In this document: positions 11,404 through 63,370 of the stretch, piece after piece
How the letters are laid out: each line of letters starts with the position of its first letter
Position numbering within the stretch: the stretch's first letter is position 1
NCBI GenBank assembly: GCA_951406725.2
Contig: OX597817.1
Span: forward strand, 6,324,001 to 6,388,000
Direction of reading: 5' to 3'
Source of the DNA: Octopus vulgaris
Lineage: Eukaryota
Length of the DNA: 64,000 nt
Program-made: the position numbers and the translations under genes
The notes under the pieces: model-generated
What the model was told of the DNA's origin: nothing
What the model saw: the letters and a program-made list of their open reading frames with translations, nothing else
Databases searched by the model: none

Positions 11404-11552
11404 TATATATATATAGATATTATATTAAATTAGAGATAAAACCACTATTAGGCAAATCATACAATGAAAAACTCAAGCCAATACATAAGATTAATTAATT
11501 TATATTGTTTTAAATATATATCAAAATTATTAAAAAAAGATAATTAGTATAA

Positions 11553-11615
11553 CACTACGATCGTTTCATGGCTGTCCAATTCTTAAAATTTAGGGTTACA
11601 GTCATTCTTCAGGTG
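11553..11615 (-). ncRNA. minimal type-I hammerhead ribozyme, mirror copy
   Basis: Reverse complement of 11660-11721. Confidence 0.8.
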
Positions 11616-11659
11616 ATTTAAATATTTAACTTATCGAGCGATAAGTTAAATATTTAAAT

Positions 11660-11721
11660 CACCTGAAGAATGACTGTAACCTAAATTTTAAGAATTGGAC
11701 AGCCATGAAACGATCGTAGTG
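11660..11721 (+). ncRNA. minimal type-I hammerhead ribozyme, canonical core
   Basis: cac-CTGAAGA-atgactgt...acagccat-GAAA-cgatcg-TA^gtg. Predicted GUA cleavage after 11718. Confidence 0.8.
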
Positions 11722-11937
11722 TTATACTAATTATCTTTTTTTAATAATTTTGATATATATTTAAAATAATATAAATTAATTAATCTTATGTATTGGCTTG
11801 AGTTTTTCATTGTATGATTTGCCTAATAGTGGTTTTATCTCTAATTTAATATAATATAATATTTTACTATAAAATTGGATTCAATCCTAAATCTGATTTT
11901 TCCCTGTAAGTTTGGATTTATTCCCTAATATTTTATA

Positions 11938-12042
<105 letters not shown>

Positions 12043-12111
12043 TATAAGTTTAACCGTTAAAGGTATTTTTTAATATGCTGGCCACATTCGAAAATTTTGT
12101 ATATATATATA

Positions 12112-12525
12112 GGTGAATGAATTATCCTATGTTGATCGTCAGTATGGAAAATTCGTTGAACCGATACCAGGGTAGCAAATTTGCGTCAGAAACACGGTTG
12201 AAGTGACCTGTCCAAGGGTAGAAACTCCGGGTTTATTTGCAGAAATTTGTGTGTTATATATTAATAAATGAAAGAATGGAGTCGAACGAAGATGTTAACA
12301 AAATTCCTTTACTCTCGACATATGTTTCGAAGACCACATGGCTTCATTCCAAAGGAATAAAGGGTGTATGATGCAATCTTCTCATCAGGAAAGAAAGGGA
12401 GCCTCTCTCGGCAACAAGACAAACAAACATTTCGATGACTGCCTACAAGGTAAACAAAACGACAATATGTCGAGAGTAAAGGAATTTTGTTAACATCTTC
12501 GTTCGACTCCATTTTTTATTTATTC
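12112..12525 (-). mobile_element. Penelope-like mini-element with short inverted arm (12263-12323 / 12465-12525) and tail 12112-12262
   Basis: ~60-bp inverted arms, flanked by (TA)n. The tail is shared with the 4352-4473 insert. Confidence 0.7.
12313..12392 (-). ncRNA. type-I hammerhead ribozyme, canonical core
   Basis: Minus strand reads tttc-CTGATGA-gaaga...tcttc-GAAA-catatg-TC^gaga (GUC site, palindromic stem III). Confidence 0.8.
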
Positions 12526-12811
12526 ATATATATATATGTATATACATACATATACATATATATAAATATATATACGACGGTTTCTTTCATTTTCCACTCA
12601 CAAGGTTTGCTCAGCCCCAGACTATTGTAGAGGATATTTGCTCAAGGTGTCACGTCATGCAATGGGACTGAATCTGGAGCCATGTGGTTGAGAAGCCAAC
12701 ATTTTCTCAAACACACTCCCCGTCTTTGTCAATCTTTCCCCTGTAGAAAATGAGGAAAACATATATCGATATATTTATACGAAAACATATTTATATACTC
12801 TTTACGCGTTT

Positions 12812-13040
12812 TCTCTTTTACTTGTTTCAGTTATTTGACTGTGGCCATGCTGGGGCTCCGCCTTTCGTCGAGCACATCGATCCCAGGACTTATTCTTTGT
12901 AAGTCTAATACTTATGCTATCGGTCTCTTTTGCCGAACCGCTAAGTTATGGGGGCGTAAACACACCAGCATCGGTTATCAAGCGATGCTGGGGGACTAAC
13001 ACAGACACACAAACATACACACACACACATACACACACAC

Positions 13041-13113
<73 letters not shown>

Positions 13114-13170
13114 TATACGACGGGCTTCTTTGCGTTTCCGTCTACCAAATCCACTCAGAAGGCTATTGGC
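12812..13170 (-). mobile_element. SINE family A, 5'-truncated
   Basis: Reverse-complement match to the tail and central domain of 7156-7612. Confidence 0.85.
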
Positions 13171-13991: not shown

Positions 13992-14113
<122 letters not shown>

Positions 14114-14589
14114 AGTTGGAGGTGTTAAGCCCTCAAAGTGATAGAAGAATCCAGAGGCACTCCTGGTAATTACTCAGTAAGTACGGTCATTGGTATAAGG
14201 TATACTGCAGCAGGTAATTTAAAAAGGTAATCTGGTAGTTTAATGTATATATAGACGATAAGAAAACGGAGAGAAAACAACAAATATATGTGTATCTGTG
14301 GTGTTAAAATGCTATTATTTAATTAGTTAAGCAAGGTGAAGCTAAGAATGAGTTTACATCTGTTTCTTTGTACCACGTTGAGGTAAAAATAAAAATAACT
14401 ATAGAAAGAAATATAATAATCATAATAGCAGCGCTTTACACTCTACACGAACACTGAGGATAGCTCCTACTCCAAAAATAATATGATTAAAAATGAACGA
14501 AATAGTGATAAGATCTGGTTAATAAATCCTCTTCGCGATAAAACTCAAATCTAATATAGTTCACTCCATAATGAGACTTACAGATAAAC

Positions 14590-15291
14590 ACTTAAACTTA
14601 AATAACACATACTCAGGAATCTTTAGGAATAAAATTAGTGTAGGCCATAGCGTAACTAGTAACCTAGCTACCATGATAGCCTCGATAAACAATAATAAGC
14701 TAGATGCCTTCAGCGAGACTAGGAGGGATACCAGCATAAAGGTAACTGCCAGCAGGCAAATGGAATAAATATCATCCCTAATAGTCCGCCCTCAAACAAC
14801 ACGGACAACGACCTGATAAATAATAACCCCCCACAACATAACACAAACACAGATAATCTGAATAATTTATGTGGCTGCAGAGACAGAAATATGTGTCAAT
14901 ACTCCAATAGATCTAAAGCAAAAGAAAACCTAATATACCAATGCGATGTACTCGCAAATAACCCTACAAAATCTTATATAGGAGACACGAAAAATGAAAT
15001 GATACTTAGATAAAAATTTCCACCAAGCTACCTTTAGAAATAAAGTAAAGCAAATTCTACAGGACTTAGTAGCTACATCTGGAAATTAAAAGACAAAAAA
15101 TCAACCATAGTTTAGAATGGGTTATCCTAGCAAAAACTTCGTCTTATACCATTAATAATAAGCGTTGTGAGCTCTGTATAATAGAGAAACTACTAATTTC
15201 AATGGCCAAATCACCTCCACTCAATAAAAGATATGAAAATAATAATTTTTGTTTGTATAAAGGCCGATTCGTATTCTCTAAGCTTCGTTAA
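14590..15291 (+). pseudogene. Penelope-like linker + GIY-YIG endonuclease C-terminus, frameshifted
   Basis: Manual translation gives GIFRNKISVGHSVTSNLATMIASINNNKL, CGCRDRNMC (CxCx5C, 14870-14896), ENLIYQCDV, STGLSSYIWKLKD and EWVILAKTSSYTINNKRCELCIIEKLLI...LNKRYE...stop at 15289-15291. Confidence 0.8.
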
Positions 15292-15490
15292 ACCCGCTCA
15301 TTCCTGTATACACCACCATTTCCTAGCTTAAATGTTATTAGCAGACATACTTATATCAGCGTATTACCTCCACTTGACCCTCTCGAACCTAACTAGCTCA
15401 CGCATACCCAACCCACATTATAAATAAATAAAAATTGCTGTATCTTACGCTAGCCTACCTCATTGCACATTATCAATAAATAATTCATAT

Positions 15491-15918
15491 AGGCGCAGGA
15501 GTGGCTGTGTGGTAAGTAGCTTGCTAACCAGCCACATGGTTCCGGGTTCAGTCCCACTGCGTGGCATCTTGGGAAAGTGTTTTCTGCTATAGCCCCGGAC
15601 CGACCAATGCCTTGTGAGTGGATTTGGTAGACGGAAACTGAAAGAAGCCTGTCGTATATATGTATATATATATATGTATATATATATATATGTATATATG
15701 TGTATGTGTGTGTGTGTTTGTCCCCACAACATCGCTTGACAACCGATGCTGGTGTGTTTACGTCCCCGTCTTTTAGCGGTTCGGCAAAAGAGACCGGTAG
15801 AATAAGTACTGGGCTTACAAAGAATAAGTCCTGGGGTCGATTTACTCGACTAAAGGCGGTGCTCCAGCATGGCCGCAGTCAAATGACTGAAACAAGTAAA
15901 AGATTAAAAGAGTAAAAA
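15491..15918 (+). mobile_element. SINE family A, full length
   Basis: Near-identical to 7156-7612, with a shorter central microsatellite. Confidence 0.9.
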
Positions 15919-16598
15919 GTATACCTAATCTACTTTCTACGCTAGTCCAGCACTACCAACTCTTTTTACACGTTAAATTACCCCTCTTCTATCTTTTTCT
16001 TTTCCTTTTCATTGCACTCCTCAAACCTAAATATTATTCCGATACCTTGTCTTTGCACGCTAAATCGTTCTCCTGCTAGATATAAACTTTAACCTTATTT
16101 ACGGCTTCCTTTGCAAATATACGAACTGACCACAACCTATAAATTAGTGACACATAGCGCGTATTAACCAAACCGGATATCCCTAATTAGGGATAACTCC
16201 ATCAGATTACACCGGCGATCAACTAGCCGAACAGGCGGATAAGTGGAAGTCATGCAAATAACTAAATATGAGACTTCAAATTCAACCTGCCTCTATTCTT
16301 CAACTGCCTCACAATGGATTTAATGAACTTTGAGCCTAACTAAAATATAAGACTTTCGAATCTTTCAGTCTATTCTTCTCTATCTTTCAGTCTATTCTCT
16401 TCTTTGTCTATCTCTGACTTTCTCCTTCTCATGACGTCTACCATTTGCAGCGAGGTAAATTCATACTTACCTAAACATGGTACACAGAAACAGCTACAAA
16501 CTCACTCTTACCTTCACCTTGCTTAACTAATTTAAAAAATGGCTTTTTAGCACCAGAGATACACTACTATTTGTTGTTTTTCCTCCATTTTCTTATCA

Positions 16599-16680
<82 letters not shown>

Positions 16681-22765: not shown

Positions 22766-22769
<4 letters not shown>

Positions 22770-23597
22770 TAAAAACGGTAAGATAACAAAAGAAAGAAAG
22801 AGTACTCAATATTATGTGAATAGAGGAAATTTATCTGTAAATTAATATGTTACCATTATTCAATAGCAAAAATAAAACTCTGAATTTCGGATGCCGAAGT
22901 GGAAATCCACAACACCATCTCTTCGGTTATCTGGCCATGTGAAAAAACGCTAACAAAAAATACCGTTATATAAAGGGAAATTACTGTGTTATAATTCCGC
23001 TACTTATATAAATTAAGGTTAAAAGTTCATAGTAAACACGTAAACATGGCTACCCATACGCTCATGTGTGCGCTCGCGCATCCACGTGCGTAACGTATAC
23101 GTCACTATGAAAACGTACACATCTTTACTCGCATTTTTCGCCAAATGTATATGCATATATATACAAACTCATATATACGCCCCACCAAAAAAAACCCGGA
23201 AAGAATTGTAAAAATACTAATTAAAAACGTCTATATATATGTATTCTTATGCGCGCGTGTGTGTATGAGTTTGTATATATATGCGTATACATTTGACGAA
23301 AAATGCGAGTGAAGGCGTGTACGTTTTCATAGTGACATATACGTACGCAAGTGGATGCGCGAGTGCACATATGAGCGAATGAAGAGCCATGCTTACGGGT
23401 TTACTATGAACTTTTAACCTTAATTTATATAAGTAGCGGAATTATAACACAGTAATTTCCCTTTGAATAACGGTATTTTTTCACAACGTTTTTTCAGATG
23501 GCCAGATAACCGAAGAGATGATGTTGTGGATTTCTACTTCGGCATCCGAAACTCAGAGTTTTATCTTGGCTATTGAATAATGGTAACATTAATTTAC

Positions 23598-23602
<5 letters not shown>
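22766..23602 (-). mobile_element. palindromic Penelope-like mini-element, same family as 60590-61942
   Basis: Inverted arms ~22835-23180 / ~23255-23602. Tail 22766-22834 on the left arm only. (TA)n flanks. Hammerhead-like motifs at 22872-22930 (-) and 23506-23564 (+). Confidence 0.8.
23506..23564 (+). ncRNA. variant hammerhead-like motif (C4 core)
   Basis: ataa-CCGAAGA-gatg...catc-c-GAAA-ctcagag-TT-ttat. Conserved in four copies in this window. Confidence 0.5.
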
Positions 23603-26434: not shown

Positions 26435-27415
26435 TAAATTGGAGATAAAACCACTGTTAGGCAAATCAAACAGTGAAAATCATAAGCCAATACATAGAAA
26501 TAAAATTAATCAAAAAATTTTCGGTGAATTTTCATAGTTTTCAAGTGTAAAGCAGAATCTGGTGTATCGTTGATGGTGAGGCATCTTGACTGTAGTAGTA
26601 AACTAGAATGCACTCTGTATATACTCAGAAAGCAGCAGCAGCAGCCAACTAAAATTCTATTTTTAGACATAACATAAATCTATTTGTAGCTCCGGAAAAT
26701 TTTCGAAAAATTTGAGGAAAATTTCGCTGAAAATTTTCGAAAAATTTTTGGGTAAAATTTTTGGGTGAAATTTTCGGTGAAAATTTTCGAAAATTGTTCA
26801 CCGAAAATTTTACCCAAAAGTTTTTCGAAAATTTTGCCCAAAAACTTTTCGAAAATTTTCACCAAAGATTTTTCGAAAATTTTCACAGAAAATTTTACCC
26901 AAAAATTTTTCGAAAATTTTCCCCCAAAATTTTTCGGAAATTTCCACAAACATTTTTTAAAAAATTTTCACCGAAAATTTTACCCAAATATTTTTCGTAA
27001 ATGTTCACCGAAAATTTTACCCAAAAATTTTTTAAAAAGTTTTCGAAAATTTTTAAAAAAGTTTTCGAAAATTTTCATCAAAAATTTTTCAAAAATTTTG
27101 CCCAGATATTTTTCGAAAATTTTCACAATTCATAAGAATGTAATTACGTTATCGTAATCTCAGGCAACTCCTGCGACCTCAGCATCATTGTTCAGTAGAT
27201 TCACGTAATCGTCAATCAAAATAGAACTCCTACCGCTTTAGCTATATTCCTATTCTCCTCGAAATCTATCTTTCTGCTTAGCTATATCTTTTACTGTTTT
27301 ACTTGTTTCAGTCATTTGTCTATGGCCATACTGGGGCACCGTCTTTTAGTCGAGGAAGTCGACCCCAGGACTTATTGTTTGTTAGCCTAGTGCTTATTCC
27401 ATCGATATATTTTGC

Positions 27416-27478
<63 letters not shown>

Positions 27479-28158
27479 TAAATTGGAGATAAAACCACTG
27501 TTAGGCAAATCAAACAGTGAAAATCATAAGCCAATACATAGAAATAAAATTAATCAAAAAATTTTCGGTGAATTTTCATAGTTTTCAAGTGTAAAGCAGA
27601 ATCGTTGATGGTGAGGCATCTTGACTGTAGTAGTAAACTAGAATGCACTCTGTATATACTCAGAAAGCAGCAGCAGCAGCCAACTAAAATTCTATTTTTA
27701 GACATAACATAAATCTATTTGTAGCTCCGGAAAATTTTCGAAAAATTTGAGGAAAATTTCGCTGAAAATTTTCGAAAAATTTTGGGTAAAATTTTTGGGT
27801 GAAATTTTCGGTGAAAATTTTCGAAAATTGTTCACCGAAAATTTTACCCAAAAGTTTTTCGAAAATTTTGCCCAAAAACTTTTCGAAAATTTTCACCAAA
27901 GATTTTTCGAAAATTTTCACAGAAAATTTTACCCAAAAATTTTTCGAAAATTTTCCCCCAAAATTTTTCGGAAATTTCCACAAACATTTTTCAAAAATTT
28001 TCACCGAAAATTTTACCCAAATATTTTTCGTAAATGTTCACCGAAAATTTTACCCAAAAATTTTTAAAAAAGTTTTCGAAAATTTTTTAAAAAGTTTTCG
28101 AAAATTTTCATCAAAAATTTTTCAAAAATTTTGCCCAGATATTTTTCGAAAATTTTCA
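24777..28158 (+). repeat. nested local tandem duplications (~310 bp x2, ~385 bp x3, ~1030 bp x2)
   Basis: 24777-25090 = 25624-25930. 25181-25565 = 26094-26465 = 27124-27510. 26094-27123 = 27124-28158. Confidence 0.85.
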
Positions 28159-54841: not shown

Positions 54842-55803
54842 CAGTAGTTTATTTTCATAACGTCCTTTCACTTCACTACCTAGTGCAACTCTGTGTGTCT
54901 TGGGTATGTGCTGTGGTTTGCTGTGATGCTCTTATGGTTATTGTATTGAAAGTGTTTTGAGTAGGATGTGTGCAGTGCCCAATATATTTGTAAGTTCTAG
55001 TATTTTTATTATGTATTTGTCTGAATATTTTTCATCATATATAATGCGCCTACTATGATAGGAATTGTTTCTGTTTTAGATTCCATGTTCGAGTTACCTT
55101 TATTTGCAGGTCTTTGTATTTTGAAAATTTCTCCATTTCTTTTAGAGAAACGTTGTCGTCTGCTAGTATTGATACATCAATTAGAAAGCATTTTGTTTTC
55201 TTCATGATCCCTGACAACTATATCTGGCCTATTTGCCTTAATTTCTCTATATGTGTGTATTGGCATATCCTATAGTATGATTGCTTTCTCGTTTTCTGTG
55301 ACTTTTTCTGGCGTGTCTTTATACCCTCTTGTTTCTGCTCTTATTCCATAATGTTGGCGTAGCTTCCAGAGTAGGTAGGTCCCAACTCTGTCGTGTCTGT
55401 AAATATATTCCTTCTTAGCCAGGACTGGGCAGCCAGAGATAATATGATTTATTGTCTCTAGTCCATTTCCACATATTCTGCAGTTACTTGTTATTTTTCT
55501 TTTCATTATATGTTTTTGGTACTTTCTGGTGCGGAGGCTTTGGTCTTGTGCTGAAATTAAAATCCTTCAGTCGCTGCTTTGAGTCCTGAGCTTCTCAACC
55601 ATAGATGGGATTTTCTCTGTCTATTCTTTTGCATTTCGTTTAGCCCAGTATTTACCCTTAAGTGGCTTTCCTTACCATCGTTTTATTATGGTCCGTTGCT
55701 GTTCTAGTTTTAGTTTGGATTTAATTTGTTTTATAATTTCTGTTTCTTCTTTTTCATGTTTGTTAGGTAGTATGATTTCTCGTTTATAATTGTCAGCTTC
55801 CTC
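54842..55803 (-). pseudogene. second, frameshifted copy of the 46531-47716 R4/Dong-like LINE 3' end
   Basis: CRICGNGLETINHIISGCPVLAKKEYIYRHDRVG and the same 3' UTR, abutting (ATT)n. Confidence 0.85.
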
Positions 55804-60336: not shown

Positions 60337-60378
<42 letters not shown>

Positions 60379-60432
60379 TAGATATAGATATATACATATA
60401 TATAAATATAAATATAAATATAAATATATATA

Positions 60433-60565
<133 letters not shown>

Positions 60566-60589
60566 TTATATATAAATATATATCATATA

Positions 60590-61942
60590 TTGATAAAAAC
60601 GGTAAGATAACAAAAGAAAGGAAGATACCTCAATATTATGTAAATAGAGGAAATTTATCTATAAAATAATATGTACAATTACTCAATGGTCAAGATAAAA
60701 CTCTGAGTTTCAGATGCCGAAGTGGAAATCCACAACACCATCTCTTCGGTTATCTGGCCATCTGAAAAAACGCTATGAAAAAATACCGTTATATAAAGGG
60801 AAATTACTGTGTTATAATTCTGCAACTTATATAAAATAAGATTAAAATTTCATAGTAAAATACGGCTAGTCATACGCTCACATGTGCGCTCGCGGACCCA
60901 CGTGCGTACTTATACGTCACTATGAAAACGTACACATCTTCACTCGCATTTTTCACCAAATATATACGCATATATATATACAAACTCATACACACACACA
61001 TGCGTACCGTAAAAGTTCATACATACGTCTAAAGACGCAGAAGCATAAGAAAACCCATGGTTAAAGGTAACAGAAAAAACATAAGGAAGTATACAAAGCA
61101 TAAAAACCACGTTCATATACGGACATGCCTTTATGCACTCATACACACGCACGCCCATATATGTACATATCCGCACATGTTTATATACGCATACATACAC
61201 ACTCATATATGAAAAACGTCTATATATATATGCATTCTTATACTCGCACACACGCACACATCTAAAACTGCCCATTCATACATATTCACAAACGTGTACA
61301 AAAAAATCTATATACACGTCTATAGAAAGGCACAGGAAAAAATGCAGGATAGAAAAGTACAGAAAAAAATTAATATGTGTGAAAATATAAAAATATATGA
61401 AATAATAAAAGGTATAATGAGATAAAAAACTTTTTGGGACATAATATAGAAAGCAAGTTCTGTCTGTTTTCTTTAGGGGACCAAAAACGTAACAAAAATT
61501 TTGTCACATATGGGCATGATCCGAAAAGTTCTGTCCTTGAGTTTAGACATGTAGTAGGGTCTAAGCTGCTTTTCCAGATAAGCCATCTCTCCATGTCGCA
61601 TAGACCGCACTTTCCGCTGCCGTTGGTGTAGGGCTTACATTTGGCCAAAATCTTCCAATGGAAAAATGCAAGTGAAGATGTGTACGTTTTCATAGTGATG
61701 TATAAGTACGCACTTGGGTGCGCGAGCAAACATGTGAACGTATGACTAGCCGTGTTTTACTATGAAATTTTATATAAGTAGCAGAATTATAACACCGTAA
61801 TTTCCCTTTATATAACGGTATTTTTTCATAGCGTTTTTTCAGATGGCCAGATAACCGAAGTGATGGTGTTGTGGATTTCCACTTCGGCATCTGAAACTCA
61901 GAGTTTTATCTTGACTATTGAGTAATTGTACATATCATTTAT
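60590..61942 (-). mobile_element. 5'-truncated Penelope-like retroelement with inverted pseudo-LTR
   Basis: Arms 60660-60954 / 61661-61942, tail 60590-60659, (TA)n flank. The GIY-YIG C-terminus starts exactly at the inversion junction. Hammerhead-like motifs at 60695-60753 (-) and 61851-61909 (+). Confidence 0.85.
61370..61660 (-). pseudogene. Penelope-like GIY-YIG endonuclease C-terminus
   Basis: HWKILAKCKPYTNGSGKCGLCDMERWLIWKSSLDPTTCLNSRTELFGSCPYVTKFLL, homologous to the 15115-15291 peptide. Confidence 0.85.
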
Positions 61943-61949
61943 ATATATG

Positions 61950-62300
61950 AAAGACCACTTATGAGGGTCATGTAAGTTTTACTGGTAATGCATAATCCAA
62001 TACCTGTTGCATGGTCGGGATGTCGGCGACTAAATCGGCGCCCTCACCTGGCATCCCTTGTGAGGAGGGTTATTAGAAACCCAGCAGGATTAAAAATAAA
62101 GACCTGTTGAAAGGTCGGATGAACCTAATGCAGGATCAACGGCTATCTAGCAGAATTTTCAGGATGGTGTCCGGCGTGCAAGAAGACTTCTAAGAGTGAG
62201 GCACCCCTCAGCTTCAGTTGAAGCATATCTCTAGGAGAAGGTCACTCTGATATAAAACCAGATATACAGGGAATGGCATTGGACATTTTGGGGATCTTTA
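61950..62300 (+). mobile_element. probable RTE-type LINE 5' UTR
   Basis: The tctaggagaaggtcactctgatataaaacc motif recalls RTE 5' UTRs. A GC-rich pseudoknot-forming segment lies at 62017-62082. Confidence 0.45.
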
Positions 62301-62961
62301 GTTTGTGCTAGAGATCTTGGCGCTCCTACATCTCTGAGCAAGCGACTCATATTGGTACCAGACATATCGCTCCGGCTTGTCTCTGGATAGCGTCCTTAGA
62401 GTGGAGTGGCTCTTTGAGGTGTCGGGCAAATCTTACTGGACCTAAAACTCTGCACAAGCACTGCTGACCTCTGCCCGATATGTGCTGCATTTTTTCCCAA
62501 TATATACTTTTTTCCTTTTCCGTATATATGTAACTTTATTTTTAGTATATATTTATTTATTTTTAGTATATAGAAGAAGGGAGTTTATAATTATGAACAA
62601 ATCACAACTATAACTATGAGGGTCTGAAAAACCCTTACGTGTTTAGAAATAACAGTCAAAAACCACTATAAAGCCACTACTATTACTCCTATTGTATACC
62701 CTAACACAATACATGTTGTCTGCGGGCGACATGACTTGTAAAATCTACAACTTATAATTAAAAGATTAATTCACCCGCGGAACAGCATTTATTATGAAGA
62801 GGCATAGCATGAGTGTTAATAGGGGCTTTATAGAGATTTTTGACTGCTATTTCTAAACATGTTAGGGTTTTTGAAACGTTCTTAGTTATAACTGTGACTT
62901 GCTAATAATTATAAACACTCTTCTTCTATGTATTTTATGATAAAATGTTTGGCCATTGATA

Positions 62962-63370
62962 TACTCTTTACTCTTTTACTTGTTTCAGTCATTTGACTGC
63001 GGCCATGCTGGAGCACCGCCTTTAGTCGAGCAAATCGACCCCGAGACTTATTCTTTGTAATCCCAGTACTTATTCTATCGGTCTCTTTTGCCGAACCGCT
63101 AAGTGACGGGGACGTAAACACACCAGCATCGGTTGTCAAGTAATGCTAGGGGGACAAACACAGACACACAAACACACACCTACATATACATATATATACA
63201 TATATACGACGGGCTTCTTTCAGTTTCCGTCTACCAAATCCACTCACAAGGCATTGGTCGGCCCAGGGCTATAGCAGAAGACACTTGCCCAAGATGCCAC
63301 GCAGTGTGACTGAACTCAGAACCATGTGGTTGGTTAGCAAGCTACTTACCACACAGCCACTTCTGCGCCT
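62962..63370 (-). mobile_element. SINE family A, full length
   Basis: Reverse complement of the 7156/15491 copies. Confidence 0.9.

Follow-up and report, generated by a model that had tools for sequence, protein, structure and literature searches.

The segment at 60590..61942 of the window (the whole stretch of 64,000 nucleotides that was analysed) is a 5′-truncated copy of a Penelope-like element of the Hydra clade, lying on the minus strand (Table 1). The window is AT-rich animal sequence with numerous microsatellites and holds two insertions of this family, at ~60.6-61.9 kb and ~22.7-23.6 kb, both two-armed, with a main copy (A or C) beside an inverted one (B or D). The arms of the first insertion, 60654-60954 (minus) and 61661-61951 (plus), are 91% identical over 302 aligned bases in a BLAST comparison of 60560-62000 with the window, while in the second the truncation of main copy C falls within the 3′ UTR. 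An earlier note on this DNA had described an endonuclease frame cut at 61660 and fused to an inverted copy of the element's own 3′ end, so that one locus ties endonuclease coding sequence to the hammerhead-bearing end. This description holds: the minus-strand frame matches endonuclease C-termini from 61657 downward, the inverted copy begins at 61661, and the arms lie on opposite strands. Two of its terms need narrowing. The "GIY-YIG coding sequence" is the C-terminal part of the domain, the GIY-YIG motif itself belonging to the lost part outside the window, and the inverted end, though real, is the standard arrangement for these elements (Craig et al. 2021).

Table 1. Features of the two family insertions and the hammerhead motif. 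Columns: feature, coordinates, strand, remarks, basis.
Target-site (TA)n array	60345..60589	.	receives the element's long 3′ end	sequence, contig loose ends
Optional 3′ tail	60590..60657	-	~70 nt	alignment, end sequences
Copy A, pLTR-like 3′-terminal segment	60654..60954	-		alignment to the other arm
Hammerhead motif type I, copy A	60693..60755	-		descriptor scan, folding, covariance model
Copy A, stem I	60750-60755 with 60693-60698	-		
Copy A, core C3-A9	60749-60743	-	position 4 is C (60748)	
Copy A, stem II	60742-60739 with 60713-60716	-	pyrimidine at 60712	
Copy A, G12-A15.1	60711-60708	-		
Copy A, palindromic stem III	60708-60700	-		
Copy A, predicted cut	after 60699	-	GUU	
Remaining 3′ UTR	60955..61459	-	AC/AT low-complexity tracts; 22.8 kb insertion shares part	sequence, repeats
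GIY-YIG endonuclease C-terminal remnant, Hydra clade	61460..61660	-		phmmer, alignment, fold of best relative
Truncation/inversion junction	61660..61662	.	~2 nt (61661-61662) common to both sides	
Copy B, inverted and 5′-truncated second 3′ end	61661..61942	+		BLAST, end sequences
Hammerhead motif, copy B	61849..61911	+	C4 and private A9-to-U; predicted misfold	
Second insertion, main copy C	22767..23250	-	hammerhead 22870-22932; long end in (TA)n	
Second insertion, inverted copy D	23257..23600	+	hammerhead 23504-23566; short end in (TA)n	

The element ends are of two kinds. The terminus is long (~60590) in the main copies and short (~60657-60664) in the inverted ones, and every end lies in (TA)n: three of the four lie in long (TA)n tracts and the fourth, the short terminus of copy B, in a (TA)4 at 61940-61947. 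The ~70-nt tail is present on the main copies (60.6 kb and 22.8 kb) and missing from both inverted copies. Contigs from four public runs, representing four organisms, have loose ends at 60585 that read (TA)n (87, 95, 74 and 35 contigs); the long terminus thus appears in all four runs, and the short terminus running into (TA)n near 60660 in two of them (X3 and X7). No target-site duplication is readable in the (TA)n array at 60345..60589. Several of the longest family contigs in these runs lose alignment at 61661-61662, where the shared letters of the junction suggest a microhomology of ~2 nt. An inverted, 5′-truncated copy beside the 5′ end is described as frequent by Craig et al., together with a tail that is optional and found on a single end (PMC8557442). 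That tail is 30-40 bp, against ~70 nt in the window family. Within the window the inverted-end layout is routine, being found in five insertions (two of this family and three of other families), and the element layout brings nothing new.

The three other insertions, whose inverted ends likewise lie in (TA)n, are as follows. At 11420-11854, two 3′ ends from a further element family meet head to head in a near-perfect palindrome within (TA)n, each arm with a canonical U4 hammerhead (11548-11620 minus and 11655-11726 plus). At 12040-12530, an insertion of another family combines a canonical hammerhead (C3 at 12388, minus strand; long stem II) with an inverted 3′-end copy of 53 nt, which starts 7 nt ahead of the predicted cut site. 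The third, at 14105-16600, is an older Hydra-clade insertion of a different family. Its endonuclease remnant lies at 14870-15294 (plus) and its inverted 3′ end at 14254-14400; near 16425-16500 there is a decayed hammerhead-like stretch, and ~15480-15920 is occupied by a SINE-like insert. The latter belongs to a repeat with an internal microsatellite, which we take to be SINE-like, whose other copies are at 62960-63370 and 12810-13170. A frame at 55270-55566 (minus) has a weak zf-RVT match (E 6e-5) and is probably the end of a non-LTR retrotransposon, and two similar stretches at 26700-26870 and 27740-27900 form long hairpins of short repeated units with weak matches to microRNA models. Beyond the window, seven metagenome loci among the matches listed (L092, L102, L104, L132, L160, L167 and L192) each carry two Hydra-type hammerheads at close range and on opposite strands, so that the inverted-end layout recurs in other hosts.

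The endonuclease remnant and its clade

The endonuclease remnant comprises the last 65 codons of the frame. A phmmer search of 1.84 billion representatives with 62 of its residues (61472-61657, minus) retrieved 174 proteins with E<=0.001, of which the best is 52% identical (E 2.5e-13). These relatives have in common a CxCX5C linker, a YIG strand and a C-terminal WKI..PY..CxLC..E..LN.R.E...C.H pattern, and the long ones encode a YRDD reverse transcriptase with a C-terminal endonuclease. The linker occurs in the closest relatives (P0001, P0002, P0151 and P0153), the matching segment being cut off in the window copy; DKT/DKS and YRDD motifs occur in the long relatives P0152 and P0153. The model of the best relative aligns with the GIY-YIG domain of I-TevI (Z 9.5, rmsd 2.4, 90 aligned) and also matches T4 EndoII and UvrC. 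The Pfam GIY-YIG model gave zero matches on the remnant alone and matches under the curated cut-off in its relatives. A word-indexed search with the remnant among longer proteins likewise gave zero matches, and no relatives of P0001 were found in viral contigs.

The Hydra clade is described with a reverse transcriptase bearing a DKT motif, a CxCX5C linker and a C-terminal endonuclease that lacks a CCHH motif (Craig et al. 2021, PMC8557442), and the linker, YRDD reverse transcriptase and C-terminal endonuclease of the relatives fit this clade of Penelope-like elements. The nearest named element is Hydra-1_Obim of Octopus bimaculoides: by eye, 31 of 61 ungapped residues are identical, and the window family is therefore its sister family. 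Like the clade at large, the window family has the C-terminal GIY-YIG type of endonuclease, (TA)n targeting, a sense-strand hammerhead close to its 3′ end and an inverted 5′-truncated copy, as noted for Penelope-13_HM. Unlike Hydra-1_Obim, it has a 3′ UTR of ~870 nt rather than ~200, and a different stem II, stem III and tail.

Contigs placed on 60584-61720 number 9,911, 8,766, 5,938 and 3,022 in the four runs, and this coverage by thousands of contigs per run marks the family as abundant. Differences in contig depth along the element were left out of the evidence on conservation, since such depth is unfit for ranking parts of a sequence and is distorted by private changes of the window copy. 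In the contigs of the four runs the family's frame stops at codon 61462-61460, and the longer window frame is a read-through; the variant rows of the four runs likewise give a conserved His at 61510-61508 that reads Tyr in the window copy. On this comparison, the longer frame and the Tyr of the 60.6-61.9 kb copy are taken as private decay.

A hammerhead-derived motif with C at position 4

A hammerhead descriptor places C3 of the four motif copies at 60749 (minus), 61855 (plus), 22926 (minus) and 23510 (plus) for copies A, B, C and D, respectively. All four have C at positions 3 and 4, and the pyrimidine before GAAA is U, U, C and C. Single-copy deviations are a U at position 9 in copy B and a U at 15.2 in copy C. 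The core is thus kept apart from U4, which is C in four of four, and A9, which is U in one of four. Stems I, II and III surround the core as a three-way junction, with stem III forming solely between two molecules. Since C4 departs from the canonical core, C3 U4 G5 A6 N7 G8 A9 with G12 A13 A14 A15.1 and U16.1 H17, the motif is classed, from its letters, as a hammerhead-derived variant. With a stricter descriptor that permits one core mismatch, the window gives four matches (three family copies and one of another family), whereas 40 shuffles average 0.1. The earlier note had listed CCGAAG(A/T), GATG/CATC, one extra pyrimidine before GAAA, ctc-a-gag and GUU as common to all four copies; the list is right except that the 22.9 kb copy reads ttc-a-gag. 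Two further matches lie elsewhere in the window: a decayed Hydra-type look-alike at 42817-42862 (plus), with C4 and without G12 (E 0.32), may be due to chance, and a decayed minimal hammerhead with a canonical 5′ core lies at 51523-51574 (plus), right after a (TAA)n tract.

Folding gives pair probabilities for stems I and II of 0.75 and 0.94 in copy A, 0.62 and 0.96 in copy C, and 0.01 and 0.00 in copy B. Stem I has 6 bp plus an extension, and the stem III palindrome self-pairs at -7.4 kcal/mol (-2.8 in copy C), compared with -7.0 for the motif with a canonical core at 12388. The core can also pair with a CUUCGG in loop II. This rival helix has a pair probability of 0.47 in copy B and 0.50 in copy D, falling to 0.11 and 0.00 with U4, but is negligible in copies A and C (0.01 and 0.00). 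For copies A, C and D, the open-core hammerhead fold is computed to be no cheaper with U4 than with C4. When the two family insertions are folded whole, their arms fold back on each other through 265-320 long-range pairs.

The foot of stem II can be read equally in two ways: either the pyrimidine before G12 is unpaired, or Y11.1 pairs with G10.1 and the C that comes next is bulged. For copy D, a Hydra-type covariance model takes the second reading, with a G10.1-C11.1 pair. The same model places the four copies among the top 9 of 23 matches with weak scores (12.4-16.9 bits, E 0.028-0.57), probably because loop II is much longer than in its training set. No Rfam hammerhead was among the 150 of 201 window matches listed, nor among the 3 matches in the 191-base stretch 60640-60830.

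File S2 of Craig et al. (PMC8557442) allows a comparison with the clade. It tabulates 26 Hydra rows from 25 families, whose letters we counted by hand; the table was built with a canonical descriptor, which filtered out little, since it holds 25 of the 27 listed Hydra families. U4 is present in 25 of 25 of these families, Hydra-1_Obim included, against C4 in the window family. Before GAA, 15 of the 25 have an unpaired pyrimidine facing an extra U after A9, and the stem II foot of the remainder consists of G-C (7), G-U (2) or a bulged G (1). Position 11.1 in Hydra hammerheads is thus C or U opposite G or U. In Penelope-3_HM, the 3′ core, stem III and cut site equal those of the window motif. 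Both Penelope-3_HM and Hydra-1_Ajap share with it the pyrimidine before GAA, a palindromic stem III with a one-base centre, and U17. In these two, however, the pyrimidine stands opposite an additional U that follows A9 or forms a pair with G, whereas in the window motif it has no separate partner unless the C is bulged; the window motif also has C at position 4 and a longer stem II, whose loop can pair with the core.

A scan of metagenome contigs with a pattern open to C or U at position 4 gave at least 120 loci. Among the 129 matches listed, 62 have stems I and II that are both 3 bp or longer, every one of them with U4, and all 20 C4 matches listed are without stems; the 62 are not independent, as few families stand behind them. 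Nine of these 62 structured matches have a Hydra-type endonuclease within the flank. The 28 distinct motifs with a stem I of at least 4 bp among the matches listed have positions 10.1-11.1 as G-C in 14 and unpaired in 14, covariation counts that are inflated because selection was on pairing. The Hydra-type covariance model described above was built from these motifs. A family-specific pattern gave no matches in the metagenome contigs. Separately, 75 viral loci of the Hydra-type pattern were set aside as chance matches, none having stems or an endonuclease.

On these letters, the "insertion" that the earlier note counted as part of its variant amounts to an imbalance of one base at a site where the whole clade is loose: the extra pyrimidine is present in four of four copies, but it is mostly a clade trait (11.1 as C or U), and C4 is the real departure. 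What sets the window family apart from the clade would be C4 together with the lack of a partner base after A9. The element class, inverted end, (TA)n targeting, stem III and loose position 11.1 are already published, and the one unusual trait is the family-wide change at a key core letter. C4 as a family state contradicts the universality of canonical hammerheads in the Hydra clade stated by Craig et al. 2021 (PMC8557442). The text of the literature searched describes no Hydra family in which C4 is the common state, though the family may be catalogued already in a repeat library (Repbase, Dfam). The available portions of a 2026 retrozyme preprint, of PMC3376415 and of PMC13282606 with its supplement hold nothing bearing on the variant.

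Inheritance of C4 and conservation of the motif

C4 is inherited as a family trait and does not reflect the decay of single copies: both insertions carry it though they are 87.5-90.8% identical to each other. None of the 40 of 118 variant rows listed for the four runs falls between 60689 and 60793, and the rows listed include a private change at 60688 (>99%) and rows whose share peaks at ~0.38 or whose depth is very low. Judged from these 40 of 118 rows, most contigs in each of the four organisms appear to carry C4. The earlier note's view that the motif is not random decay is borne out by these two observations. CpG decay was rejected as an origin of C4, as that process gives C to U, not U to C; CpG-type changes account for 5 of 36 singleton changes, and CpG positions for 30 of 293. 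Rescue of C4 by A-to-I editing was likewise rejected, since such editing leaves C unchanged.

Whether the motif is more conserved than its flanks depends on how changes are counted. Pooled, variable columns number 6 of 63 in the motif and 42 of 217 in the flanks (p=0.046), a marginal difference. It loses significance once changes are split: those shared within an insertion affect 1 of 63 motif columns and 10 of 217 flank columns (p=0.25), those private to a copy 5 of 63 and 32 of 217 (p=0.11). The 65 nt directly upstream are conserved much as the motif is (9 of 65 variable). The four copies stem from two insertion events; their agreement therefore means common descent, not selection, and gives no basis for a claim of covariation.

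Likely activity of the C4 motif and proposed origin of the insertion

Published data suggest a strong loss of self-cutting upon this change, and C4 probably weakens cleavage. U4C "considerably decreases activity in vitro" (PMC3088659), and a pairwise mutational scan found low activity for single and double CUGA mutants, except for the C3-G8 swap (PMC9901934). A natural viroid hammerhead with the same U4C substitution nevertheless stays infectious, as cited in Perreault et al. 2011 (PMC3088659), its much reduced in vitro activity being sufficient in vivo. There the change is a viroid variant, whereas in the window it is the family-wide state of a retrotransposon. The minimal metazoan Penelope hammerheads (Cervera and De la Pena 2014, PMC4209133) resemble the window motif in being type I, in their short palindromic stem III that requires a dimer and in their low expected activity, cleaving poorly in vitro despite a normal core. 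They differ in their consensus, CUGANGA, the core variant reported among them being U3-A8 and not C4; a bulge in helix II like that of the window motif is described for Drosophila virilis Penelope. In a Poseidon element, hammerhead mutants had no effect on in vitro insertion, for which the main substrate was uncut RNA, and hammerhead cleavage required added element protein; this protein cuts and extends both target strands, and the element has two reverse-transcription start sites (PMC11167929). Naiads thrive without canonical hammerheads, and Craig et al. 2021 consider that Penelope hammerheads may be dispensable, even parasitic (PMC8557442).

The reading we lean towards, with somewhat better than even confidence, is that a successful retrotransposon lineage carries along a ribozyme that is weakened or dead, and the 60.6-61.9 kb copy is best read as a dead insertion of a high-copy Hydra-clade Penelope-like retrotransposon whose host is probably an octopus. 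The strengthening of the rival helix by C4 in copies B and D argues for this reading, as does the count of C4 in none of the 25 tabulated families and in none of the 62 structured metagenome matches among those listed. Set against it are the intact fold, the pooled variability of the motif below that of its flanks, the absence of the rival helix from copies A and C, and the lack of a fold-cost gain from U4 in copies A, C and D. Moreover, the infectivity of the U4C viroid and the protein dependence of Poseidon suggest that weak cores can work in vivo.

Those last points lead to the main alternative, a functional non-canonical hammerhead in which C4 and the stem II bulge are tolerated through the stem III dimer or a protein, with slow or conditional cutting. 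The other core letters are kept in three of four copies, stems I-III are intact, and the sole difference between insertions within the motif (60712, U or C) is still compatible with pairing to G. The apparent majority of C4 in four organisms, the infectious U4C viroid and the known protein-assisted cleavage of a Penelope hammerhead (PMC11167929) point the same way. The loss of the selection signal after the split, the similarly conserved upstream 65 nt, the absence of C4 among the structured Hydra-type matches listed and the low activity of CUGA mutants (PMC9901934) count against it, and we regard it as possible but on balance unlikely. Its strongest form, an octopod Hydra family with a working C4 hammerhead that has a bulge beside the general base G12 and is active only as a dimer or bound to protein, would be slightly more doubtful still.

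C4 could also mark an abundant derived, largely non-autonomous subfamily whose intact masters carry canonical U4. The 40 of 118 variant rows listed leave room for a minority U4 class, and endonuclease-matching contigs could come from sister families with other 3′ ends. In the 60.6-61.9 kb copy, however, C4 is physically linked to endonuclease coding sequence, and the two insertions share C4 despite their divergence, which makes this improbable. That the motif is a chance hairpin of no hammerhead descent, as the weak model scores and the lack of a listed Rfam match at 60640-60830 might suggest, is very improbable and largely refuted by its position on the sense strand near the 3′ end, the usual site of Hydra hammerheads, and by a 3′ core and stem III equal to those of Penelope-3_HM, with a shuffle expectation of 0.1 per window and low scores traceable to the long loop II.

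For the weakened or dead ribozyme, the course of events may have been as follows. The element's GIY-YIG endonuclease would have cut both strands of a (TA)n site, as established Penelope biology suggests, and reverse transcription would have been primed from each side on the 3′ region of the RNA, one side using the long start and the opposite side the short one. The long and short termini parallel the two reverse-transcription start sites of the Poseidon element. The two partial cDNAs could then have been joined at the ~2 nt of microhomology. The ancestor of the hammerhead was presumably an ordinary Hydra-type, dimer-dependent ribozyme; the master lineage would have gained C4 and the one-base imbalance at the stem II foot, and its ribozyme most likely lost much of its speed or all activity. 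Transposition would have gone on in this lineage, since insertion does not need cleavage. Both 3′ ends are downstream of the predicted cut, by ~40 and ~110 nt, which makes uncut (or rejoined) RNA the source of the copies. In a transcript reading through the 60.6-61.9 kb locus, the two arms would pair with each other and the motif would be buried.

The C4 family is a real but modest novelty within a known element class. The role of hammerheads in Penelope elements is debated, and this family offers a natural comparison, since it has a fixed core change and shares its genome with families of canonical core (at 11.6 kb and 12.4 kb). Should the C4 form prove dead, the lineage would have spread with no need of cleavage. 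Should it prove active, the core would be more tolerant than is assumed in searches, and whole families would escape CUGANGA descriptors; a working C4 hammerhead would then be a natural high-copy exception both to the near-invariant CUGA turn and to the rule that Hydra elements are always canonical.
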